This document shows, one piece after another, positions 23,767 through 46,200 of a stretch of DNA of 64,000 bases (the first letter of the stretch is position 1; the number at the start of each line of letters is the position of its first letter). The notes beneath the pieces are model-generated. The model did not search any database and had not been told where the DNA came from. It saw nothing but the letters and a program-made list of their open reading frames with translations. Origin of the DNA: Squalus acanthias (lineage: Eukaryota); NCBI GenBank assembly GCA_030390025.1, contig CM059432.1:85500001-85564000 (forward strand), given 5' to 3'. The translations under genes were made by a program, and so were the position numbers.

Positions 23767-24380
23767 GGTTGCGCTTTGTCCATTTTCAGCGGCTGTTAAT
23801 CCAAGGCGGCCACGAATTTTTCCCCCCTTATGCTGAAGCTGTGCTCTGCTTAGGTTGCACCTTGAATACTACATTCAGGTTTGGTCACAGAGACATAGGG
23901 GAAACATCTCAAGACCTGGGTGCGGTGCAAAGAACAGGCAGAAGGCTGAGCCTCGATGTCAGTAGACTGAATTATGAGGAAAGGTTAGAAAAACATGGGA
24001 TGCAACTTTCAACTTCAGCGGGGGCGTAAAACTGCCAATATTGGATTGGCCACCCGTTGTACACCCCACCCAATTTTCCTCTCCATTAAAGTCAATAAAT
24101 AGTCAAATTGAGTGGGTGTATAACGGAAATCTGATCCGATACCATCAGTTTTACGCTCTCACCGAAATCGAAAGTTTTGCCCTTGGGCCCTGGTCTTGAT
24201 GAACACAAATGAGATGGGACATTATATAGATACGTGATAGCAAGTAGAATAGAGAAGGTTAATCTAGAACATTATTTCAAGTTAAACTATGACTGCAGGT
24301 TGAAGGGACATATGTACAAACTGGGCACATTCAAAACTTATGTCAGGATGAACTTCACTCAGAATGATCACTACATATAA

Positions 24381-25029
24381 CAGTATGCTGGCCTTCATAG
24401 CAAAAGGGTTGGAATACAGGAACAGGGATACCTTGATGCAGCTGTACAGGGCACTGGTGAGACCACACCTCGAGTACTGTGTACAGTTATGGTCGCCTCA
24501 TCTGAGGAAAGATGTTCTTGCCATGGAGGGGGTGCAGCGGCGATTCACCAGGCTGATACCAGGAATGGCGGGATTGACCTATGAGGAGAGACTATGTAGT
24601 TTAGGGATGTACACACTGGAGTTTAGAAGATTGAGAGGGGACCTCATAGAAGTGTATAAAATTCTGACAGGTCTAGACAGACTAGATGCAGAAGGAATGT
24701 TTCCCTTGGCGGGTGAGAACAGAACTAGAGGACATAATTTAAGGATAAGGGCTAAACCATTTAGGACAGAGATGAGGGGGAATTTCTTCACTCAGAGGGT
24801 GGTGAACCTGTGGAACTCATTGCCACAGAGGGCAGTGTACGCCAGCTCATTAAATATATTTAAGAGGGAATTAGATATATTTCTACAGGCAAAAGGGGTT
24901 AAGGGTTACGGAGAGAAGGCGGGGACGGGATACTGAATTGGAGGATCAGCCATGATCTCATTAAATGGCGGAGCAGGCTCGAAGGGCCGGATGGCCTACT
25001 CCTGCTCCTATCTTCTATGTATCTATGTA
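24381..25029 (+). mobile_element. CR1 LINE 3' fragment
   Basis: ORF 24364-24936 (MLAFIAKG...VRPHLEYC...FFTQRVVNLWNSLP) followed by a 3' UTR. Confidence 0.92.
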
Positions 25030-28489: not shown

Positions 28490-30114
28490 ATAGTTCTTTA
28501 ACCACAATTGTTTCTCTCCCTCTCAGAATTCCTCACCTTCTACTGTTTGTAAAGTGCTCTGTGATACTTTTCTATGCAGGGTGTATTTTATATCTATAAC
28601 TGGAATTTATTGTTTAATGATTGAAAGGAGCTGACTATCTCTTCAGCTCTTTGCAGTTATTAAAAATGACCCCAATGATAGAAGGACAGGAATTACACAT
28701 TTGTAAGCTCTACTTTCCTCAATTCCATGACAATGTGAGCATTGAAAGCATTGCTCTTCACCTGCATCACTGTGAAATAGAACCCATACTGATTCCTACA
28801 GTGCAGTATGAAATTGGCATTTTCTCTCTTTTAATTTTTCTATGAATTCTTCTGTCTCTTTTTTCCTTTTCTTCATTCTTCACTGCCCACTTGACTATTT
28901 GACTTCCAAATGTCAATTTTTAACAATTTAAAAAAAACTTTTTTTCCCTCACTTTCCAGTGAAAGAAAGAAAAAGAACATTATGGAAGTGGGATTATGCC
29001 AACATCCATAGCCAAACTGAAAGTGCTCTACTGATAGACAGTCTAGGACGCCTGAGAAGTATGCCTTAGAATATTTAATTAACAGATCACTAATAATAAG
29101 CATTTTTATCTAATCACCCTTGAATGACTCATTGTTTTTACCCTCTGTACTGAGGTAATGTGCATTTAAACAACTGCTATACTCTAGATAAATGAGCATC
29201 CATAGTAACTAAAAATGGTAGAAAAATGCATGTCACTTAACTCTCCCAAAAAGATTAACCTTTAATTAATAAATGTAAACTACTTATGGTTGGTGTTGCA
29301 AACACAATCACTCTAAGGACTAATTAATATTTAGTCACTACTCAGCCTAAAAATTAGGTCATAGCAAAGAGTCCCTTGATCTGCCTGCCTGGCTTTCTCC
29401 TGTATTCCATTTGATCTCTCTTTCCCAAACCTGCCTCCCTGCCTCTTTCCTGACTTTCTCTTTATCCTTATATGCCTGTTTCCTGAGCCCCAGCCAATTT
29501 ACTTGCTAGTCTCTCTCTGGTCCAATCTCCATTCTGTGATGGAACACTACTAGAAGGCAGTGCTACATCTTGCCTCCATCACAGGTGAAAGTAGAGAAAA
29601 TTGGCAAGTTCCACTCAGAAAAGAAGGTTCTGATAATCCTTCAACTCAGAAGGTTTCCCTGACTCACTGCAAGAGCAGGAGCAGGCAGAAAGTTCTCAGT
29701 AATGGAAGTTGAGCAGTCTTTGGAAAAGGAACAGTAGGAAGATCGTGCACATGCAAAGGATAGGAGGCTGAAGGGATAATTACTAGTCCTAGCCCTTTTC
29801 GGGCTACCCCAGATCAAGCGTATTCCCCATACGTTCACCTTCAACTAAAGTTTGAGGTAGCCAAATCCTAGAGACGCTTAATTGGGTCTAAAGGTTCAGA
29901 CAATCTCTCCCTAAAGGAAAGGAACGACTTGAAGATGTTACCGTCCTCCAGATAGCACTTTTAATAAGATTAACTAGACTGTAACCTTCCGGATATTATG
30001 AGGGTCCGGAAAACCCCCCAGAATTCTGCAACTCCTCACAAAAGAGTGTACAGAAATTGAGTTCGCGAGTTTGATACATAAGTACTCTGTGAGACAATTC
30101 TAAAAGTATATAGA

Positions 30115-30120
30115 TTTATT
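30115..30120 (-). promoter_or_regulatory. LTR polyadenylation signal AATAAA
   Basis: tttatt on the + strand, about 290 nt downstream of the TATA box in the viral sense. Confidence 0.65.
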
Positions 30121-30325
30121 AAAGAACGACATGTAGTTAACAGTTGGTGAGTCAATCGCAACTTTAACAGTTCAAAATACAAATAGCTTACATTTCTTAT
30201 CAGAGATCCTTATTCTCAAATCTTAACTTCGTTACATTTTTACACTTCTACTTATTCTTAATCCAGAATATCCACCAAAATCAAATAAAAGTACCTTTTG
30301 ATCCCCGAGACTCAAAGAGTTAAAA

Positions 30326-30331
30326 ACTTAC
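30326..30331 (-). promoter_or_regulatory. Putative major splice donor (GTAAGT) in the LTR R region; equivalent site near 35315-35320
   Basis: Perfect donor hexamer about 50 nt downstream of the inferred start site, the position where foamy viruses carry their major splice donor. Confidence 0.55.
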
Positions 30332-30405
30332 AGAGCCTGCCTCTGAAGTTGAGAATCGCTTTGCCCCTTCCAGCGACTTCTGACTTCCTATCTGAAAGCT
30401 CCATA

Positions 30406-30412
30406 TTTTATA
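30406..30412 (-). promoter_or_regulatory. LTR TATA box (TATAAAA); equivalent site near 35395-35401
   Basis: ttttata on the + strand in both LTR copies, upstream of the donor and the polyA signal. Confidence 0.65.
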
Positions 30413-31223
30413 CTCTTTTTGCAGTGGCATATTCTTTGAAGTTTTCTGTTGATGTAAGCTAATTATCTCCAGTCATCTTTCTGTTGACTTCTTTCTATTC
30501 TTACTGTCAATTCAGCTGCTAACTTGCAGAATTCTGTCTCTACTTTTAGGTGTTCGAGACTTATCATAAAATATGGTTATAACAGATTTATCTATTTGAT
30601 GCGATTCTTAGGAAGTTCTTCTATTGAATTCTTAAATTACTTTAACTGCTTGTAAGCCAGACTTCGCGTCTCCTTGAGTTCCAAGTTCAACACATAAACA
30701 ATGTGATTGCTTGGTGCATCTATCGATGTAATATTTACAAAGTCTTCTGTTTGTACCTTTTACTATATGTAAATCAAAAACACTTCAGCCGAGTACTTGA
30801 TTGTTTCCTCAGCCATCTTAGTTGTTTGTATTACAAACTTATGCTTCCTGTCTTTCATTTGATGTTACTTTTACAAAGACACATGGTTTGTTAATGTTCT
30901 ATGTTTCTGTTCGAAGTGTTAGTTTTTAACACTTTAAACTGAGTATAGCTATTGTGTTGGTTCCAAACTGCAGACTTCTTGGAACCTCCAACCCTCTGTT
31001 TCAATGAGGCCATTGTCTCAGTGTCAATAACCAATTCCCATTTCAAAAGCTTGTATGGCGTTTACAGCTTTGTGACTCATCTTATCTCAGAAGCCTGTAT
31101 TTACAGCTTTGTGTCGTTGAGGCTTTTAGATTTTTAAACCCAGTTTGTCATATTTTAATAAAGTCTGAATTATGTTCGTAGGATGGTGTATTTTTCTGAA
31201 TAGGTATGGCTCATTCCTTTACA

Positions 31224-31233
31224 CCCCCCTTTT
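31224..31233 (-). promoter_or_regulatory. Polypurine tract AAAAGGGGGG
   Basis: Abuts the TG start of the 3' LTR on the minus strand. Confidence 0.9.
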
Positions 31234-31522
31234 GACCAAAAGATGAGCTTAAAACATCAGGGCAGAGTTTGGTCAATGATACAAATCAGGTTACAAGAGC
31301 ATATTAATTTCACGAGATTCGCAATCATGTGCTACATGAAAATTCCTTTTAAGTCATCCTAGGACAATGTTTTGCCTTATTTTAAATTGAACACAATTTA
31401 AAAGGATAATAGTACATAGTCATGCCATGAGCGAAACAACATGTACTTAGAATGTCCAATCAGCAGATGTATGTTCCGTAGAGGTGAGTTATTCATACAA
31501 GTCAAGGAGACGTCATTTGAAA

Positions 31523-31780
31523 CTAGTTGAAGCTTGACACGCTGTTCCTTCGATCCGGTGTGTGTACAGATGCATGTTTTCGTAAAGGCCTTGCCAGGCA
31601 CTCAGTTGATTCCTTCTTCATCCGCGATGTCTTCCTCCTTCGCTGAAGTAACTCGTTGATCTTTCCTTGTTTCGGTTGTTGCTTTTCGCAAATCCAATTC
31701 CTGATGCGTTGCCAAGCAACGTGTAGAGGAGCCGGCGACACCTTCTGACTGACCGTCGTCAGTAGTTCGATCGCATCCAT
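31523..31780 (-). pseudogene. Possible env N-terminal (leader) remnant overlapping the pol 3' end
   Basis: ATG-initiated ORF in a different frame overlapping the integrase tail, with a Trp pair (WQRIRNW). The assignment rests mainly on position. Confidence 0.4.
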
Positions 31781-33080
31781 TTCCTGTGTCGTGCTCCGAG
31801 CTGGGTCTTAAAAGACAGTGTACGACTGCACCTTGTTTTGTTCCTCCTTTTTGGTATCCCGCAGGACATCTCTTGATATTGTCTATGGAGACAGTTTTAA
31901 GAATATGCTTCCCATTCGGCTGGTTAATATGTATTTGAACTGTTATTTCGTTAATAACAGAATGTATTTGAACAGGTTTTTTACACTTCGGCCTTAAACC
32001 AGGTTTTTGCTCGAACTCCTTTTCCTGTACCCATTCTCCTACTATGGGTTGCCATGCTTTATTTGTCAATTTTTTCTGCCTATCTGCTTCCCTTTATCCT
32101 CTCATCAATTCGATGAATCTGCTCTGTTACTTCTTTTTTTTTAATCTAACTGTTGCTATTGGGTCAAGGACTCAGAGTGTGTAGAGGCAATAAAAGAACT
32201 ATGGGTAAGCGGTGTATGCATCTCAACCCCATACATCAGATAATATGGAGTTTTAGGGGACACTGTCCCTGATGTAGATGTGGGCACATTATTGAGTGAT
32301 AGCTGTACCTCCGGAATGATGGTGGTCCACTTATTCCCCCTGATTCTCAACAGTTTGACCAATAGCTTTATTACTTCCTGGTTTTTACGTTCCACCAGCC
32401 CCGCTGATTGCGAATGACGTGGCGTGCTGTGCTCTAAGCCAATCCCCCTTTGTTCACAGTAGTCTTTGAAGACCTTGGATACAAAGGCTCTGCCTTAATC
32501 GGAGTGTAAGATTTTGGGTGCACCAGCTACAGTAATTATATCAGAAATAGCCCTGGCAAGTGCGTTTTCCAAAACAGTTTTTGTGGGGACCAGCCAGCAG
32601 AAGGAAGTGCATCCATCCACACAAATGAGAACATGTCTATATCCCAAAGACGGGGGTAGTGGTCCAATAAAGTCAATAAAGAATTTTCCCATTGGCTCAT
32701 CAGCTTTCACAGGAGCCAGTGGTGGTGGCTTAATTAGTGATGACTTATTGGTTAAATAGCACGGCTCACAATTTGCCACGTATGTTTTACAGGCTCTAAG
32801 CATGCCTGGCCACCAATATAAGGGGTCAATTTGCAAAATGTTGTTCTGGCACCACAATGTGCTTGACTTATGCCCTCGTGAGCTTCTTTTACAAGCTGTT
32901 CTCGTTTGTGGCTCGGGGGTACTTCTCGGTTTCCCTTGGGCAACTTAACTAGTACAATACCCGTAGGGGTTTCCGAGTAAAAGTACTTTGGTGGATATCC
33001 TGGTGGATTCTCTGTTATCGGGTCTAATAGCTGAATCAGTTCCTCATCCTGATTAGCTGCCCGTTCTGCCGTAGTGATTT
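31602..33080 (-). pseudogene. pol: Foamy-like integrase (N-terminal extension, HHCC, DDE core, C-terminal domain) with frameshifts and stops
   Basis: GYPPKYFY...EAHEGISQAHCG...LYWWPGM...CEPC...KFFIDFIGPLPPSLGY...VDG...LHSD*GRAF...STPRHSQSAGLVERKNQ...WQPIVGEWVQE...TVSIDNIK. This parallels prototype foamy virus IN (KFFIDYIGPLPPSQGY, VERKNS, TVSIDNLK). Confidence 0.93.
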
Positions 33081-33560
33081 CACTAACATTGGCAGGCCCC
33101 TCTCGAGGGGGTGTCTTGCAGACCGAACGTTTTGCTTGTTCGTCAGCAAGGCTGTTTCCTTTTGAGTGTACTGTCCCAGTGGTATGCCCGTTTACATGAA
33201 TCACCTGACAATTCTGTTTCTCCATCCTCGAATGGAGAATTTCTTCCCACAGTGTGGGTTTAATAAAGTCTGCCTTCTCTAAAGCACACCGTAATGCTGC
33301 GACTTCAGCATATGGCCAAGGGTTTTAGACAGAAATTCTTCTGTATAAAAAGAATAGGAATCTCTTAAAAGTCCCTACTACTATCCCCATCCCAGCTGAG
33401 GATTGTTGGGATGTCCCTTTTTTAATCGTCATTGACGATCCATCACAGTAAATAATTTGATGGTATTCTATAAGCGGTCTCATAGGTATTTGTCTGATTC
33501 CCTCCTCCGTATCATCATCCTCCATGATGGGGAGATGCTCTATCTTTCCACATTGATTTA
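33081..33560 (-). pseudogene. pol: Foamy-like RNase H domain, disrupted
   Basis: IIYCDGSS...SSAGMGIV, AEVAAL and HVNGH...HSKGNSLADEQA, compared with foamy FYTDGSA...NAGMGIV and HTEGNALADKLA. Confidence 0.88.
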
Positions 33561-34031
33561 GATGGCGTTGTAGATAAGGGTATTAATGAGTTGCTCAAGG
33601 AGGTCTTTGCCTCCCCCCTCTAGGCAAGTTCGATCAAGCTGTGTTCGAACATGTTTTTCCCTGTCATCCTGGTCTGTGGATGCTTCTAGAGATTTGGTTG
33701 AGATTTTAAGGTAATGTTTCATGTCTGGTTGTCCTATAATGAGGGAACAGGCCAATTGTGGTACCAGTCCTACATCTAGGGTCACCGTGATTCCATATAT
33801 AGTAAGAGGTATTTTGTAAAAATTAATTATTTTGGTTTCGTCTTGTGTGAATCCCCCTAATGGTCTTTTACAAATTAGGCTCCCCAAATCTGTCCAGTTA
33901 GTTTTTATAATTGCAGGATCTATTACAGTGTAATCAGCTCCCGTATCAAACAGGGCCTTCACTTGTGTGTTTTTGGGCAAGGTTGCCAAGGCATAGCGGA
34001 ATTCAAGAGGCCCTGGCTGGGTGCCAGGCCT
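33558..34031 (-). pseudogene. pol: Aspartic protease plus start of the PR-RT linker; RT polymerase domain deleted
   Basis: VKALFDTGADYTVI active site. The sequence joins the RNase H region near 33560-33585 with no YxDD-containing segment in between. Confidence 0.88.
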
Positions 34032-34341
34032 TCAATCCTGGGATTGTTCATCCTCAGGATCCTGAGTTTCATTTGCTTCTTTGTCTTTAATTATTTTAAC
34101 TGATTTTTGTTCCTCCCTCTTGGGGGTATCATATTTTCCAGATCCCTGAGGGGTTTTGTCGGACCGTTTATTATCTTGACGATCCTTCTGTTGAGGTGGA
34201 CGTTGGTTCTGCCGGGAATCTTTTTGATCCCCATATCGGTTTTCTCGGTATCCTCCCATGGCTCTCTGATAACTTTGGCCAGTGTAAAAGCTGTCCCCAT
34301 AGGGAGTCCACTGTCCTTCGCTTTCCTTTCGAGGTCTAGCC
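34032..34341 (-). pseudogene. gag: gag C-terminus (Arg/Gly/Gln-rich, no Cys-His box) ending in TGA
   Basis: ARPRKESEGQW...GGYRENRYGDQKDSRQNQRPPQQ...EQSQD*, directly upstream of and in frame with the protease. Confidence 0.75.
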
Positions 34342-34978
34342 AAGATTGGAATGCCCAATACCTGAGGCAACTACTACAAATGATACTAAGTTCAGACTTA
34401 ATTCCCCCATTAAACCAGTGTAACAACTGGGTTCAAATATACGCTTATGTTCTCACGGCAACTCAGGGAGGGCATGTAATGGGTTCCATCAAGGAAATAC
34501 TCACTAATACAGCCACAACTAAAGGGCTGGTAGCTGCCTACAGAATAGGCAAAGTACTTACACAGGATAACTGGGACATTGTCCATGGTTGCCTGGCCAA
34601 TCAATACCAAAATACAGCCCTCAACCTTGCTTGTGAGGGTGCTCTAAACAATTATCGAGATAACCAACAAAGATGGGATAATGTCAATCGCATTATCCAA
34701 TTAAATCATGACCTCTTAGGTCTACCCCAAACTAAATCTATAATGAGATCAGAAACTAGGGATAAAAAAATGGAGAAGGTACCTTTGGTACTCAGAAAGA
34801 AGGACTGTATAGACTCAAGTCTCAAGTCCACCCCGCCCAGACATAAGCTCGTAGCTCAGGACCCCCAGGAGCGTATTCCAGAAGGTATACATCCCCAATT
34901 CGCCCACAATATAAGAAAGATTTCTCCCCAGAAAGATGGGATAGACGAGGGGCTAGACCTCGAAAGGAAAGCGAAGGA
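34342..34978 (+). pseudogene. gag: Inverted gag segment encoding the foamy-type capsid domain and basic region
   Basis: CNNWVQIYAYVLTATQGG...KGLVAAYRIGKVLTQDNWDIVHG...LNHDLLGL..KSI parallels foamy Gag (CVNW...THGS...EGVATAYTLG...QNYQLVSG...YEILGL..GQSI). After a 1-nt slip in the A-run at 34764-34770 it reads on to ARPRKESEG, which overlaps the minus-strand gag tail. Confidence 0.82.
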
Positions 34979-35121
34979 TCTATTACATATAGTAAAAGGT
35001 ACAAACAGAAGACTTTGTAAATATTACAGTGTAATCATCTCCCGTATCAAACAGGGCCTTCACTTGTGTGTTTGTGAGCAAGGTTGCCAAGGCATAGCGG
35101 AATTCAAGAGGCCCTGGCTGG

Positions 35122-36212
35122 GTAGTTAACAGTTGGTGAGTCAATCGCAACTTTAACAGTTCAAAATACAAATAGCTTGCATTTCTTATCAGAGATCCTT
35201 ATTCTCAAATCTTAGCTTCGTTACATTTTTACACTTCTACTTATTCTTAATCCAGAATATCCACCAAAATCAAATAAAAGTACCTTTTGATCCCCGAGAC
35301 TCAAAGAGTTAAAAACTTACAGAGCCTGCCTCTGAAGTTGAGAATCGCTTTGCCCCTTCCAGTGACTTCTGATTTCCTATCTGAAAGCTCCATATTTTAT
35401 ACACTTTTTGCAGTGGCATATTCTTTGAAGTTTTCTGTTGATGTAAGCTAATTATCTCCAGTCATCTTTCTGTTGACTTCTTTCTATTCTTACTGTCAAT
35501 TCAGCTGCTAACTTGCAGAATTCTGTCTCTACCTTTAGGTGTTTGAAACTTATCATAAAATATGGTTATAACAGATTTATCTATTTGATGCGATTCTTAG
35601 GAAGTTCTTCTATTGAATTCTTAAATTACTTTAACTGCTTGTAAGCCAGACTTCGCGTCTCCTTGTGTTCCAAGTTTAACACATAAACAATGTGATTGCT
35701 TGGTGCATCTATTGATGTAATATTTATAAAGTCTTCTGTTTGTACCTTTTACTATATGTAAATCAAAAACACTTCAGCCGAGTACTTGATTGTTTCCCCA
35801 GCCATCTTAGTTGGTTGTATTACAAACTTATGTTTCCTGTCTTTCATTTGATGTTACTTTTACAAAGACACATGGTTTGTTAATGTTCTATGTTTCTGTT
35901 CGAAGTGTTAGTTTTTAACACTTTAAACTGAGTATAGCTATTGTGTTGGTTCCAAACTGCAGACTTCTTGGAACCTCCAACCCTCTGTTTCAATGAGGCC
36001 ATTGTCTCAGTGTCAATAACCAATTCCCATTTCAAAAGCTTGTATGGTGTTTACAGCTTTGTGACTCATCTTATCTCAGAAGCCTGTATTTACAGCTTTG
36101 TGTCGTTGAGGCTTTTAGATTTTTAAACCCAGTTTGTCATATTTTAGTAAAGTCTGAATTATGTTTGTAGGATGGTGTATTTTTCTGAATAGGTATGGCT
36201 CATTCCTTTACA
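35122..36212 (-). repeat. 5' LTR, truncated (U3 plus most of R; distal R, U5 and PBS missing)
   Basis: 1091-bp ungapped direct repeat of 30133-31223. Identity stops before the polyA signal. Confidence 0.93.
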
Positions 36213-37267
36213 AGGCATGAAGGGCATTAGATATTAGAAAGTACTAGGCAAATTAGAGGTATTAAGAATAATGTTATGAGGGGGCATTGGGTGTTAGAAT
36301 TAAAAGAGACATTGAGAATGAAGTGTATCAGACACAGCACAGAGGAAAGAGTGCCATCAGATACTATATAGAATAGGCATGGAGAGAGAAAGGCAAATAT
36401 CCCACCAAATGTTAATTATTAGGCGCTCTGAACTGGAAAATTAAGTGAAGATTGAAGAAGGGGTTGAGAAAATAAAAGGAAACAGCACAAGATTTATAAA
36501 AAAAGCAAAACAGTACTGAAGAAAATTGATGCCAGAAACATAAGGCTGTGGGTGGGTTACCGTAGGATCTTGAAGCTTCAATATGTACTACCATAAAGAG
36601 ATCAAATATGGGTTTGCCCTGCTTGTTGCTGCTCCACTTAATTACTTGTCTGAGTTGTTTTATTGTGAAGTACTGAGGTTAAGTTCAATGTTTCCCCAAC
36701 AGGAGGGAAAATTATTAGAAATTGCCTCTATTAATGGAGACCTGATTGCAGTTCACCAACCTGCCCTCTCGGCTGTGGCTGTTGTGCTATTCAGCAAGAC
36801 CTGAACAATAGGTTGGAGAAAATAAGTTCAAAATAAAATAAATGGATGCATACTCGACCCCCATGCCCTCCCCACCCCAAGTCAGAAAAGAAATTAGAGT
36901 TTTCACACTGTCAGAGATAGTACGAGCTTTCAGTCTGCTGCCATGATACCAATCACTAAAAATGTCACCCCTAGCATTGACAGTTCTGTTAGTTCATAAT
37001 ATTAATCTGCTGGGGGATAAAATATTGCACCACGAAAAGCAAAGCTGTAAATAAAAATTAAAAGTATTAGCAACAAGGAGATAAGTATTTTTATCCTCCA
37101 AGATGTGAATGGTGACATAATTTTTAAAATTACCACCTAAAGTAGTGATATAAAATCTATCCAATGCCTCTTTCCCTCCCACAGATACCAGGCACAGAGT
37201 TATGAGTGAAAACAGCAAGTTTAACAAAATTAATCACTTCAGCAAATGTCCAACATTATGTTATAAT

Positions 37268-39436: not shown

Positions 39437-42302
39437 AAAGATTTTCTGTAGTTTACTTTCTTTAAAAATGAAAGAATGATTTGTGAAATACAAACCTTAA
39501 TTTGATTCAAATACATTGGGCTGAATTTTCCGTGGTGGTAGCAGGCGCGATCGGTGGTGGGTCGGGTGGGAAAATTGTTTTTTTTTGACAGCGGGTCGGG
39601 AACCCAACCCACCCATCATTGGGGATAAAGTACCCCCCAGTGTTGCTCCTTGGTGCTTGTGCTTTGATTCATTGTGTGACATCCAAGCTACAGCTGCCTT
39701 GTGGAAGCAGTAAGCCTGCTGGGATTCTTGTCGCCCTCGGCTCATTCTTGACTGTCATTGCGTGGGCTCAGATGCTCTTAGAAACTTTTAGTAACCCACA
39801 GTTTACCTATAAATAGCACACCGAACAGAAATTTCTAGGCTGCAATGCCATATGTGCTGTCTTTCTCCTCTGGCTATCATCTTAAATAATTTACAGGATC
39901 ACTAAAACTATAAAACAGCTGAATCCAATAATAGGTTATGAACTAGTATGAAATTTTAGTTCTGTGATTCAATATAATTTTCCCAAAAATGAAAGCTACA
40001 TTACATTGCAATTTTATTATAAAATTCGAAAAGGACTTAGCAAGATAATGACATCCTGAAAAATCTAATTAAAATTCCATTTTGTAAGAGAGAAATATCC
40101 ATTAAAAATAATCCTGCATTTATTATACATGGTCCTGTAGTTATTAAATAAACAACCAGAAATTTCCAGCAGTTACTGTGACAATGATTCTAAGAAGTCT
40201 GGATTTTTCTCAGGCTCTATTTTCATTTTTAATCTCTCTCCTGTTTTACATCACTCTCAAATGCTACCATTTTCATTTTGTTCCTTGGCCTATATTCATG
40301 TTTCTATTTATATCTCCCTGAGGGAAGATTTCCTCTGTAGGCTATTTATAGCAAAATCGTTAATGCCTTCTTTATATAGGAATTCTTTTCTACCATCTGT
40401 ATTCATATCACGCACTCCCTTCTGTTTTCATGCCACTTGTGGAGCGACTAGAGAAACTGGGACTCTTCTCCTTACAGCAGAGAAGGTTGAGTTACAGTAA
40501 CTGTTACTGTACATCTGTGGAGATTTTCATTGCTTTCCATTTAGAGAATACTGTTATCATCTGCATGCTAATGCCCAACACTAAAACAGAACTATCAGAG
40601 AAACAATATACCTTCCCAGATCAGTGATTTGTTTCAATTGTGTGAACCCCACTGTCGTTCATGTGTAAAATGTATTTGCTGTCAAGCCAAAAGAATCAAT
40701 GGAAATAAACAGTCCCCAAATAATAACTAACATAAATCTCCTATTGAAGCATCCCATAATAGTGAGAGAAGCATCTTCTCTCACTGGCAATTAAAAATAG
40801 AATTTAGCCAATCTTAATCCATTTCCCAATGCCTGTGACTACAGTACAAAACTACCCATAATTCAACAATAATTAGCATTGACTGTACAAGAGTACAGAA
40901 ATGAGAGGATAGAGCAGATGAGTGCGTGGCTGCAGAGACGTTGCAGGAGGGAGGGCTTTAGATTCCTGAAGCATTGGGTCTGGTTCTGGGGGAGGTGGGA
41001 CCTGTACAAGCCGGACGGGTTGCACCTTAACAGGGCTGGGACCAATATCCTTGCGGGGAGGTTTGCTAGTGGTGTTGGGGACGGTTTAAACTACCTTGGC
41101 AAGGGATGGGAACCTGAGCATAGATTCAGAAGGGAGAGAATGCAAGCTGGAAATGGAAGGCAGTAAATTAGTAAGTGAGTTTGGAAGGCAGAGGAAACAA
41201 AGGCTAGAAAATAGACAACACAGGGGTTTGGCAGTACTTAATGTTATATACTTCAATGCAAGGAGTCTATTAAATAAGGCAGATGAGCTGAGGGCACAGA
41301 TAGACATGCGGAAGTATGATATTGTAGCTATTACTGAAACATGGCTGAAAGAAGAGCAGTTCAACATTCCTGGTTACAGGGTTTTCACACGAGATAGAGA
41401 GGGGGATAAAAAAGGAGGAGGGATTGCAATACTGGTTAAAGGAACAATTACAGCTGTGAGGAGGGATGATATGTTAGAAGGATCATCAAATGAGGCCCTA
41501 TGGGTTGAACTGAAGAACAAAAAAGGGGCAATTACACTGCTGGGGGGTGTACTATAGACCCCCAAATAGTCAGAGGTAAATAGAAGAGCAAATATGTAGG
41601 CAAATTTTTGAGAAGTGCAAAAACAATAGGGCAGTAATAGTGGGGGATTTCAACTACCCAAACATTAACTGGGATAGCATCAGTGTAAAAGGTATAGAGG
41701 GTGCAGAGTTCTTAAATGCATTCAGGAGAACTTTTTAGCCAGTACGTAGCAAGTCCAACAAGAGAGGGGGTGGTTCTGGACTTAGTTTTAGGGAATAAAA
41801 CTGGGCAGGTGGAAGGGGTATCAGTGGGAGACCATTTTGGTGTTCGTGATCATAATTCAGGTAGATTTAGCGTAGTTATGGAAAAGGACAAAGATGGACC
41901 AGGAGTAAAAGTTCTCAATTGGGGAAAGGCCAATTTTACTAAGCTGAGATGCGATTTAGCAAAAGTGGACTGGAAACAGCTACTTGAAGGTAATTCCATG
42001 TCAGAGCAGTGGGAGGCATTCAAGGAGATAGTGAGGGTTCAGAGCAAATATGTTCCCACAAAGAAAAAGGGTGGGACTCCCAAATTTAGAGCCCCCGGAT
42101 GTCAAAGGGCAAAAAAGGTTGGAGAAGGCAAAAAAGGGAAGCTTATATCAGATACCGAGAGCTAAATACTACAGAACGCCTAGAGGCGTATAGAAAGTGC
42201 AGAGTTGAAATTAAAAAGGAAATTAGGAAAGCAAAGAGAGGGCATGAAAAAATATTGGCAAGTAAAATCAAGCAAAACCCAAAGATGTTTTATAAATACA
42301 TA

Positions 42303-43126
42303 GGCCGGAATTTTCCCCATGGTGGCGGGTTGGGGGAGGGGGGCCTCCGAGGTGGGCGGGAAACCCGGGAGGCTGGGTTTCCCACAGGCCCTGCCGACTT
42401 TAACGGCAGGGCCTGATTTGAATGTGAGGCTTTGGATTCCCGGCCGCAGCCAGCCAGATTGAGAGGCTGGCTGGCTGCGGGCGGTTAGGCCTCAGAAGCG
42501 AGGGGCCGTTCCGGGGGAGGGATCGTGGGAGGAGGATCGGCAATCGGCAGGGGTCGGGGATCGGGAGGGGGGAGAGAGCATTGGCAGGGGTCAGGGATCG
42601 CTAGGGGGCAGTCGGCCAGGGATTGGTGGGGGGGGGGGGGGGTCGGTTGGGGATCGGCAGTGGGGGAGAGAGGATTGGGGCCAGCCACCAGAGGATCATG
42701 GCTGGTCTCATCATCATCATTGGGGGGGAGGCCTGGGGGGGTGGGGGAGGCCTGGGAAGGTGATCGGAGGCCCGGGGTGGGGTCTCCGATCGCGAGGTGT
42801 GGGTTAGGTATGGACTCTGGATCCAGGAGGTAGGTATAAAGCCACTTGTCCCCTGGATCCAGCAGTCCCCGCCTCGGTTTAACTACCGGGTATCCCCAGG
42901 CAGTTAAACACATGGAGGGGAAAAAAGAGGCTGCCAGCCTCATTACAATATTTAAATTGAGATAACGCCCCCTCGGAACGGATTGGTCGTCCGCCCCCCC
43001 CGTCCCGCCCCCGGTAATATCGGAAGTGGGCGGGTTGGAGTCGGGATCAGGTTGGGAATCCCATTTTTAACACTTTAACTGCCCCACGATCCAAACCCAC
43101 CCTTTTTTTAGGGGAAAATTCTGGCC
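42303..43126. mobile_element. Harbinger-type MITE inserted in CR1 ORF2
   Basis: TIRs GGCCGGAATTTTCCCC and GGGGAAAATTCTGGCC with ATA TSD. Removing it restores CR1 YKYIKSKR. Confidence 0.93.
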
Positions 43127-43180
43127 ATAAAGAGCAAGAGGATAACTAAAGAAAGAGAAAGGCCTATTAGAGACCAAAAA

Positions 43181-43265
43181 GGTAACCTATGTGTGGAGGC
43201 GGAAGATGTGGGTAACCTATGTGTGGAGGTGGAAGATGTGGGTAACCTATGTGTGGAGGTGGAAG
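43181..43265 (+). repeat. 30-bp tandem repeat (about 2.8 copies) inside CR1 ORF2
   Basis: ggtaacctatgtgtggaggYggaagatgtg is repeated. Confidence 0.9.
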
Positions 43266-46200
43266 GGGTATCAGTGGGAGACCATTTTGGTGGTAGTGAT
43301 CATAATTCAGGTAGATTTAGCGTAGTTATGGAAAAGGACAAAGATGGACCAGGAGTATGCATACTTTGCGTCTGTCTTCACAAAAAAGAGGAACAATGCA
43401 GACATTGCAGTTAAGGAGGAGGAATGTGAAATATTAGATGAGATAAACATAGTGAGAGAGAAAGTATTAAGGGGTTTAGCATCTTTGAAAGTAGATAAAT
43501 CACCAGGCCCAGATGGAATGTATCCCAGGCTGTTAAGAGAAGCAAGGGAGGAAATAGCAGAGGCTCTGACCATCATTTTCCAATCCTCTCTGGCTACAGG
43601 TGTGCTGCCGGAGGACTGAGGACTGCTAACGTTGTACCATTGTTTTAAAAGGGAGAAAGGGATAGACCGAGTAATTACAGGCCAGTCAGCCTAACCTCAG
43701 TGGTGGGAAAATTATAGGCAAAAATTCTGAGGGACTGTATTAACCGTCATTTAGAAAGGCACGGATTAATCAAGGATAATCAGCATGGATTTGTTAAGGG
43801 AAGGTCGTGTCTGGCTAACTTGATTGAATTTTTTGAGGAGGTAACAAGGAGGGTCAATGAGTGTAGCACGTTTGATGTAGTCTGCATGGATTTTAGCAAG
43901 GCTTTTGACAAGGTCCCACATGGCAGACTGGTCAGAAAAGTAAAAGTCCATGGGTTCCATGGGAAAGTGGCAAGTTGGATCCAAAATTGGCTCAGTGGCT
44001 GGAAGCAAAGGGTAATGGTCAACGGATGTTTTTGTGACTGGAAGGCTGCTTCCAGTGGGGTTCTACAGGGCTCAGTACCAGGTCCCTTGCTTTTTGTGGT
44101 ATATATCAATGATTTAGACTTCAATGTAGGGGGCAGGATTAAGAAGTTTGCAGATGATACAAAAAATGGCCGTGTGGTTGATAGTGAGGAAGAAAGCTGT
44201 AGACAGGAAGACATCAATGGACTGGTCAGGTGGACAGAAAAGTGGCAAATAGAATTCAATCCGGAGAAGTGTGAGGTAATGCATTTGGGAGGGCTAACAA
44301 GGCAATAAATGGTAGGAGATTGAGAGGTGTAGAGGAACAGAGAGACCTTGGAGTGCATATCCACAGATTCCTGAAGGTAGCAGGACATGTAGATAAGGTG
44401 GTTAAGAAGGCATACAGGATACTTTCCTTTATTAGCCGAGGCATAGAGTATAAGAGTAGGGAGCTTATGCTTGAACTGTATGAAACACTAGTTAAGCCAC
44501 AGCTAGAGTACTGCATACAGTTCACATTACAGGAAAGATGTGATTGCACTAGAGAGGGTACAGAGGAGATTTACGAGGATGTTGCCAGGACTGGAGAATT
44601 TTAGCTATGAGGAAAGATTGGATAGGCTGGGGTTGTTTTCTTTGGAACAGAGGAGGCTGAGGGGAGAATTGATTGAGGTGTATAAAATTATGAGGGGCCT
44701 AGATAGAGTGGATAGGAAGGACCTATTTCCCTTAGCAGAGAAGTCAATAACCAGGGAGCATAGATTTAAAGTAATTGGTAGAAGGATTAGAGGAGAGTTG
44801 AGGAGAACTTTTCTGACCCAGAGGGTGGCGTGGGTCTGGAACTCACTGCTTGAAAGGGTGGTAGAGGCAGAAACCCTAATTGCATTTAAAATGTAGTTGG
44901 ATATGCACTTGAAGTGCCGTAACCTACAGGGCTACGGACCATGAGCTCGAAAGTGGAATTAAGCTGAATAGCTCTTTTCGGCCGGCACAGACATGATGGG
45001 CCGAATAGCCTCCTTCTGTGCCATAAATTTCTATGATTCTATGAATTTCCTCCCCAGCATCTTGTTGTTCTAATGTGCCAATGCAAGGAAAGAAATGCCT
45101 TTAATTTAAGAAATCTTTTATATTTGCTCGTGCTGAACTGCACTTTCTAACATTGAATAATATTGAAATTTTTTCTTTGTACAATTATATCTTCAAATAA
45201 AATTATGTCCATAGTTTTTAGTGGTTGTTACTATACTGTCAAAGATAAACCTACATGGCAAAACAGTACCTTTAAACACAAACCCTACCACTAACCTTCA
45301 AGAGTATAATACTCAGCTACCCAGAAAGGTCCATGCAACATAAAGGAAATGATATTTCAGAAAAATGGTTTTTTCGTCATCATTATAATAGATAGCAAGA
45401 ATCAGGCTTGTTAGCCCCACAGAAAGAGACACACATGCACATACACACTGAAATTCATCTACAGTCACATTTAGAACAAGCGTCAGATTAATTTTTTTGC
45501 CAACTGATGAACAAATGTGAAGCATTAGCTTAATGTTAAGGTTGACACTACAAGGCCCCTCTAGAAAGGTGGGCTGCCTACAGGTGATCTTCAAGACTGG
45601 TCTCAGTCTGTACAAGGAGCTACTGTAAAAATCATTGAAGAAAGGTTGCTGTGTTCTGTCTGAGGATATTTCTGGATAATTGTAATAGGCTTTGCTTCCT
45701 ATATTTAGCATTGAGGTGATGAAGCTCTTAGTAGTCACTTATTCTTTCCTTGAAGAATTGACAACTAATCAAGTCCTTCTCAAGGAATCATTCTGAGGGC
45801 TTTAAACACGTTCTGTATTTTTTAAAATGTGTTCCATGGTTTCTGTGCAGATTAATGTAATAATTAGTTTTATTTGATCATATAGTTTGAAGAAGATTTT
45901 TACTAGATGAAATTGTCTCTGTGGATTATGTTTAATAAAGGTTTAAAATGGCAGTTATTGCAAATGTTGGTCACAGAGAACAGTGATATTTCAGAAATGT
46001 TTTATGCCCCTAGAGTGAACTACAGTGAACAAATTAAAATCCACTTCAAAACCTGGAGCTAATTGTTTTGTTTGTTTTAAATTTATCCTTCCCATTTTGT
46101 CTCTCCTCCCCTGGGGACCACTCTCAGATTTCCACTGAGGATGTTCTGGGTAGCAGATTTCTCCATTGGCTACTGCTGGCTGGCAGAAAATGAGCTTATG

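Follow-up and report, generated by a model that had tools for sequence, protein, structure and literature searches.

How did the foamy-like provirus in a 64,000-nt stretch of the Squalus acanthias genome (contig CM059432.1, positions 85,500,001 to 85,564,000; hereafter, the window) make its Pol protein? In mammalian foamy viruses a spliced mRNA encodes Pol, and a Gag-Pol fusion made by engineering is still active (PMC3705302, PMC7828637). On the minus strand of the window, gag and pol are instead separated by a TGA at 34032..34034, in the context UGA-AGG. Our reading of minus-strand positions 34040-34008 agrees with that of an earlier note on this DNA, and the bases that follow the stop (34031-34008) are AGGCCTGGC-ACCCA-GCCAGGGCCT. 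The catalytic Asp of the protease is codon 29 past the stop and, as the note had claimed, the window copy has no ATG in between. What that reading missed is that only ~103 gag codons stand upstream of the stop in this copy, because its capsid part (34339-34978) is inverted and its RT deleted. The further claim, that gag and pol are in frame across one TGA, must therefore rest on sister copies, and on their frames it holds.

Structure of the window provirus

The window provirus is dead. It has lost its primer site, gag start, RT, and env, and its capsid region is inverted. A 4-bp target-site duplication, GCCT, flanks it at 36213..36216 on the 5' side and at 29765..29768 on the 3' side (features are on the minus strand unless stated otherwise). 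The 5' LTR (35122..36212) is truncated, its final ~360 bp having been lost together with the primer site and leader; the 3' LTR (29769..31223) is complete, spanning 1455 bp from TG to CA, and 18 differences in 1091 bp separate the two. A 102-bp duplicate of the protease start (35022..35123) lies at a rearrangement breakpoint and is followed by a mid-gag segment on the plus strand (34339..34978) that encodes the spumavirus Gag central (capsid) domain (Pfam PF20672, E 2.9e-14), the inversion being judged by orientation relative to the sister copies. As a whole, region 34339-35123 is a complex 5' rearrangement comprising inverted gag, the duplicated protease start, and a 46-bp inverted LTR piece, and the two LTRs around it have a common target duplication. 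The gag 3' tail (34035..34341) shares the frame of the stop and pol. Beyond the stop, the protease, with its DTG at 33947-33939, and the start of RT occupy 33534..34031, as far as the deletion that removed RT. RNase H and integrase (31869..33500; Pfam RNase_H, Integrase_H2C2, rve, and SH3_11) contain stops and frameshifts, and a short stretch at the place of env, which is probably an env stub, precedes the LTR together with the polypurine tract (31224..31868). Elsewhere in the window, the frames at 24352-24936 and 41090-44896 may be remnants of CR1/L2-type LINEs, which they resemble.

The family is a true foamy-like lineage

A DNA search of the genome for the family returned 234 candidates, of which 40 were scored. 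By its Gag and protease, its position in an RT tree, its Lys primer site, and its env, the family is a true foamy-like lineage, which bears out the affinity that had been assigned to the window copy. In sister copies, Gag contains the spumavirus central domain PF20672 (E 1.4e-15), and domain search found no zinc knuckle (Cys-His box) there. The A9 protease domain PF03539 scores 30.1 bits, over a cut-off of 21, in one sister copy. The primer site lost from the window copy is present 3' of the 5' LTR in all eight sister copies (8/8), where it is complementary to tRNA-Lys, the same site as is given for AciFLERV (PMC5512871). Among solved structures, the best match to the family PR-RT is the foamy PR-RT (E 5e-99, compared with 1e-27 for MLV), and the family RT is ~50% identical to that of simian foamy virus. 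An RT tree built from 39 sequences and 256 columns puts the family inside the foamy/FLERV clade (bootstrap 95), in a group with a catshark element and the mammalian foamy viruses (84) and away from teleost FLERVs; the inner branching of the mammalian-foamy/catshark group lacks resolution. Foamy env (PF03408) gave 11 matches at 6 places among 13 candidates, and family gag or pol adjoins all 6 (L041 and five others). In six of eight other copies integrase runs directly into the LTR with no env, and the window copy is also env-less. The foamy Gag chromatin-binding motif Y-x-x-R (PMC6042332) was not seen by eye in the family gag tail. The family also does not have the separate, overlapping pol frame with its own AUG that strictly defines Spumaretrovirinae. 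Searches of metagenome contigs and viral contigs, and protein searches with PR-RT or L157 gag (see below), recovered no close relatives beyond this genome.

TGA is the family state at the gag-pol junction

Of 116 loci examined, 95 cover the junction. Their codon at the stop position is TGA in 73, TGG in 12, TGC in 7, and GGA, TCA, and TTA in one each; leaving out the ten loci that had been chosen for long frames gives TGA in 68 of 85. These copies are non-independent, with shared lineages and duplicates among the loci. Neither CGA nor CAA occurs at this codon in any of the 95 copies, whereas at most true CpG sites CG survives in more than half of the copies and the two decay products are both seen. 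CpG decay is thereby ruled out as the source of the TGA. The earlier note had proposed aligning other genomic copies, and the outcome is clear: a codon that is TGA in 73 of 95 copies and never CGA or CAA did not arise by nonsense mutation after insertion, and TGA is the state of the family.

The phylogeny and sequencing data are consistent with this. In a tree made with the junction codon masked (88 of 110 loci), TGA is the codon of the copies closest to the midpoint root, and TGA copies are the sisters of several TGG copies. Among the matches listed from sequencing runs of four organisms, TGA is the majority codon, and in three runs TGG accounts for 12-17% of the depth. About 20% of copies differ at the third base of the stop, which changes to G or C only (Trp, Cys) and never to T. 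A-to-I editing, which disfavors a 5' G neighbor, was set aside on that ground as the origin of TGG.

The frame is shared as widely. Gag tail and protease start are in one frame in 29 of 30 copies, the remaining copy having a 1-nt insertion, and a full 532-codon gag probe matched in the frame of the stop in 8 of 30, the probe copy included. One in-frame stop, conserved in the family, thus lies between Gag and the active site of the protease, and long pol frames remain open in TGA copies (e.g., 560 of 560 codons read). Frameshifting is needless here, the gag and pol frames being identical.

Deleted sub-lineages and a second foamy-like lineage

Eight copies (L107, L108, L109, L114, L118, L119, L121, and L124) form a capsid-less sub-lineage with an in-frame 993-nt deletion in gag. 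A sense codon stands at the junction in 6 of these 8, which are related rather than independent copies, compared with 16 of 87 elsewhere. Of the changes shared among the capsid-less pol sequences, 22 are silent and 13 replacing, whereas among single changes 28 are silent and 71 replacing (p 5e-4); the same test in the protease-dead lineage gives p 0.5. The shared changes may predate the capsid deletion. A sub-lineage that has mostly lost the stop while its pol appears still to be under selection would favor a Gag-Pol fusion. Two further deletions are shared, one of 76 nt in protease by 13 copies (L043, L047, L048, L050, L053, L054, L058, L072, L076, L078-L080, and L083) and one of 364 nt in RT by 8 copies (L019, L040, L042, L061, L068, L088, L121, and L122); both lineages were likely copied in trans. 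The shared 993-nt gag deletion and a 412-nt junction deletion have short direct repeats and no GT-AG, so splicing was rejected as their source.

The genome also holds a single-copy foamy-like ERV, L157 (G000:C10:78183600-78188600, minus strand), that is separate from the window family. It has a Lys primer site and the Gag motif Y-x-x-R-x-R, and its LTRs differ at 2 of 968 positions, making it very young. In this one copy, all that this genome has of L157, a UGA-CUAG lies within the protease domain, 6 codons upstream of the Asp. When the stop is read as X, the protease profile crosses it and rises from 29.5 to 34.4 bits. Because the stop is inside protease, a separate Pol start cannot work there. 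Only 1 of 128 codons that are one step from TGA has CTAG next, which, together with the 2/968 LTR difference, makes a chance mutation unlikely. A relative, P0013, has a single 1687-aa Gag-Pol frame with Arg at the position of the L157 stop. Read from these frames, the L157/P0013 lineage appears to make a Gag-Pol fusion with stop and Arg alike.

UGA readthrough is the probable route to Pol

Silent-change enrichment among variants present in at least three copies shows that capsid and RT were under purifying selection during spread of the family (Fisher p 8e-7 and 1e-4, respectively), and selection on RT means that Pol was being made. There was no such enrichment in the rest of gag or in the 28 codons past the stop. 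A pol AUG was looked for, and no usable one precedes the active site: ATG occurs within codons 1-28 in 9 of 95 copies, seven of which belong to the protease-deleted lineage. Residue 14 of foamy Pol aligns with codon 20 past the stop, so the foamy Pol Met maps to codon 7, which is GGG.

From the shared frame, the family-wide TGA, and the missing AUG, we infer that the family probably made Gag-Pol by UGA readthrough, the mechanism that the earlier note had put forward and that remains the most likely one. Most ribosomes would end at the UGA and yield Gag alone, and some would read it to give Gag-Pol, the source of the enzymes. If an RNA structure acted as stimulator, it would be a stem lying 6-14 nt downstream, formed with the ribosome sitting over the bases just past the stop. 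The UGA-AGG context does not belong to any of the three classical types of readthrough context (I-III as in PMC13517186), and similar contexts, UGAAGA and UGAAGU, are recorded there for fish and frog retroviruses. In yeast Tca2, the gag-UGA-pol junction by itself gave no readthrough in reporters (PMC2194720).

A different route to Pol would be initiation at a near-cognate CUG or UUG at codon 15, via reinitiation or an internal promoter and with no Gag-Pol fusion. This codon has a good context (GCC-CUG-G) and alternates between CTG and TTG, either of which is a possible start; ray-finned fish FLERVs are annotated with gag/pol overlaps of 1 or 4 nt (PMC5512871), and Tca2 possesses a promoter at its junction (PMC2194720). 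However, a start at codon 15 leaves 14 protease residues before the Asp, compared with ~22 in foamy Pol, and, of the variants in codons 1-14, the two found most often leave the Pol sequence unchanged. Selection on codons 1-14 would tell readthrough from such a start, and the values obtained (p 0.45, and p 1.0 for codons 15-28) do not separate the two. Initiation at codon 15 also fails for L157, where the stop is inside protease, and leaves the link between loss of the capsid and loss of the stop unexplained. We regard it as very improbable.

About as improbable, in our assessment, is a variant of the foamy scheme in which an exon with an AUG farther upstream is spliced to an acceptor just past the stop. 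In the mammalian viruses the pol mRNA is indeed spliced, at a suboptimal site (PMC7828637), and AGs are present at +1/2, +14/15, and +18/19. Yet these AGs have no pyrimidine tract; the pyrimidine content there is ordinary (7/16), and 68% of the AGs in the locus score equally. None of 37 deletions at 101 loci ends at these AGs, which is weak evidence because a pol RNA could be spliced and yet never packaged, and the large deletions are bounded by short direct repeats with no GT-AG. Moreover, the foamy acceptor sits within gag, upstream of the pol AUG, and that AUG is missing here.

It is also conceivable that TGA copies never produced Pol and were parasites of TGG or TGC masters that gave Gag-Pol. 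Sense codons are indeed found in 22 of 95 copies as well as in three of the sequencing runs at the depth given above for the listed matches, one env-bearing copy has TGG, P0013 proves that a stop-free foamy-like Gag-Pol frame exists, and the RT selection signal is one for the copies as a whole. Against this, TGA is the majority codon, is nearest the root, and is present in another env-bearing copy; TGG copies nest by TGA copies at several places; and long pol frames persist in TGA copies. Such masters are thus highly improbable. Finally, a post-insertion nonsense mutation (e.g., CGA to TGA) in a single gag-pol frame, which the heavily broken state of the window copy might suggest, is refuted by the junction-codon counts and by the different behavior of true CpG sites.

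Two competing predicted RNA folds after the stop

The earlier note had also named a hairpin directly after the stop as the candidate signal (+1..+24, 34008..34031; 9 bp, bulged). The fold stands as a prediction: it is the predicted structure of the 24-35 nt past the stop, at -14.5 to -15.2 kcal/mol, but it is only modestly better than shuffled sequences, with z scores of -1.66 and -1.90 when taken alone, and of -0.69 and -0.90 within stretches of 56 and 85 nt. Among 3371 30-nt windows of a sister copy, 15 fold equally well, 7 of the 15 being the hairpin site. The role of stimulator fits it poorly. Its spacer is 0, within the ribosome footprint; its variation (3.5%, compared with 2.9-4.1% in the flanks) indicates no extra conservation; its first pair is disrupted in 16 of 96 copies; and, with the first 6 nt covered, a different stem wins over it. 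Known stimulators begin after a spacer of at least 8 nt because ~11-12 nt occupy the ribosome entry channel, and in PSIV a stem at +2 gives no stimulation (PMC13517186). We therefore think it unlikely that the predicted hairpin is the stimulator.

The 3' arm of the hairpin can alternatively pair with 33992-33985. The resulting stem (33976..34025) comprises 8 bp between 34017-34010 and 33992-33985 and a 4-bp extension between 34025-34022 and 33979-33976, with a spacer of 6 (extension) or 14 (core) and z scores of -1.9 to -2.8. The two folds compete when the full sequence is modeled, with mean pair probabilities of 0.41 and 0.45 in predictions made without pseudoknots, and removal of the first 6-12 nt raises the downstream stem to 0.86-0.88. 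The commonest variant in the region, C/T at +43 (55 and 37 copies), preserves pairing in the downstream stem and is also a silent Leu change. Each of the two main stems is disrupted in ~4.5% of cells, and the 4-bp extension in just 1.6%. Covariation among genomic copies, which the note had suggested as a check on its stem, was not seen: neither stem has a compensatory (two-sided) change among family copies. On these modeled folds, the downstream stem is a candidate stimulator with a little less than an even chance of having acted as one.

Other ERV families in this genome provide a view of such junctions outside the foamy lineage. In several non-foamy families (loci L127-L146 and L159-L169), a TGA or TAG separates gag from pol and the Asp is at +28 to +31; a zinc-knuckle Gag was found in the three scanned. 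In 12 of their junctions, a 6-bp long-range stem follows a spacer of exactly 8 nt, the geometry of MoMLV and alphaviruses; no two-sided change was found in this stem among the 12. These families are possibly lokiretroviruses, and the available text of the lokiretrovirus paper contains no passage on a gag-pol stop.

Relation to known systems and ancestry

The family resembles mammalian foamy viruses (simian, feline; PDB 7o0h/7ksf) in its PR-RT, Gag central domain, A9 protease, integrase SH3, and Lys primer site and, in some copies, its foamy env. It differs from them in that they use a separate spliced pol mRNA whereas its gag and pol share a frame across a UGA with no pol AUG. With the FLERVs of fish, amphibian, and bird (AciFLERV, AliFLERV, NviFLERV, CmiFLERV, and ERV-Spuma-Cbo) it shares the RT clade, a 4-bp target duplication, the Lys primer site, and an LTR of ~1.5 kb. 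In contrast to the family, gag and pol of these FLERVs are annotated as overlapping, by 1 nt in cichlid, 4 nt in killifish, and 125 nt in newt (PMC5512871) and by 38 nt in stork (PMC6955096); for shark FLERVs, the literature searched yielded no account of the junction.

Similar junctions occur in more distant viruses. XtERV-S, a class III element of Xenopus for which suppression has been proposed, likewise has gag and pol in one frame with a TGA between them, but it is ERV-L/S-like and has a class I env and a dUTPase-like segment (PMC8278194). The gamma- and epsilon-like viruses MoMLV, WDSV, SSSV, ZFERV, and SnRV also have a lone in-frame stop that lies after Gag and before the protease DTG, and the UGAAGA and UGAAGU contexts resemble the UGAAGG of the family (PMC13517186). 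UGA contexts are given there for SSSV, ZFERV, and a frog ERV. The gamma- and epsilon-like viruses differ from the family in RT clade and in their zinc-knuckle Gag, and MoMLV in its UAG followed by a pseudoknot after an 8-nt spacer (PMC13517186). Stop suppression, which the earlier note had described as the gamma- and epsilonretrovirus strategy, is used there and has also been proposed for XtERV-S (UGA) and for snakehead retrovirus, so it is not confined to those groups (PMC8278194, PMC13517186). The alphaviruses VEEV, SINV, and CHIKV, though unrelated to the window family, have a UGA with a downstream extended stem and natural stop-to-sense variants (PMC13517186); their UGA-CUA context is that of L157, while the window family has no CUA/CGG context. 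The words 'foamy' and 'spuma' do not occur in the available text of PMC13517186, which lists readthrough systems.

The literature searched yielded no published readthrough in a foamy-like virus; the main survey of fish and shark foamy ERVs, Chen et al. 2021 (J Virol), fell outside that coverage.

In-frame stops are found in the sampled outgroup families and in the two foamy-like lineages described here, and not in teleost or tetrapod lineages. Two losses of the stop cost the same as one loss and a regain on the RT tree, whose inner branches lack resolution. It is possible, somewhat short of an even chance in our view, that UGA readthrough was the original foamy strategy for Pol and was kept in two cartilaginous-fish lineages, as UGA-AGG with a switchable downstream stem in one and as UGA-CUAG inside protease in the other. 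The spliced pol mRNA would then have come later, and the capsid-less sub-lineage would show that the stop set the ratio of Gag to Gag-Pol.

If the family did make Pol by readthrough, foamy Gag, protease, and env would be compatible with a Pol that is fused via an orthoretrovirus-style readthrough junction. The origin of the spliced pol mRNA becomes testable through comparison of junctions across FLERV lineages, and candidate readthrough signals would be added to a list that has had no spumavirus entry (PMC13517186).
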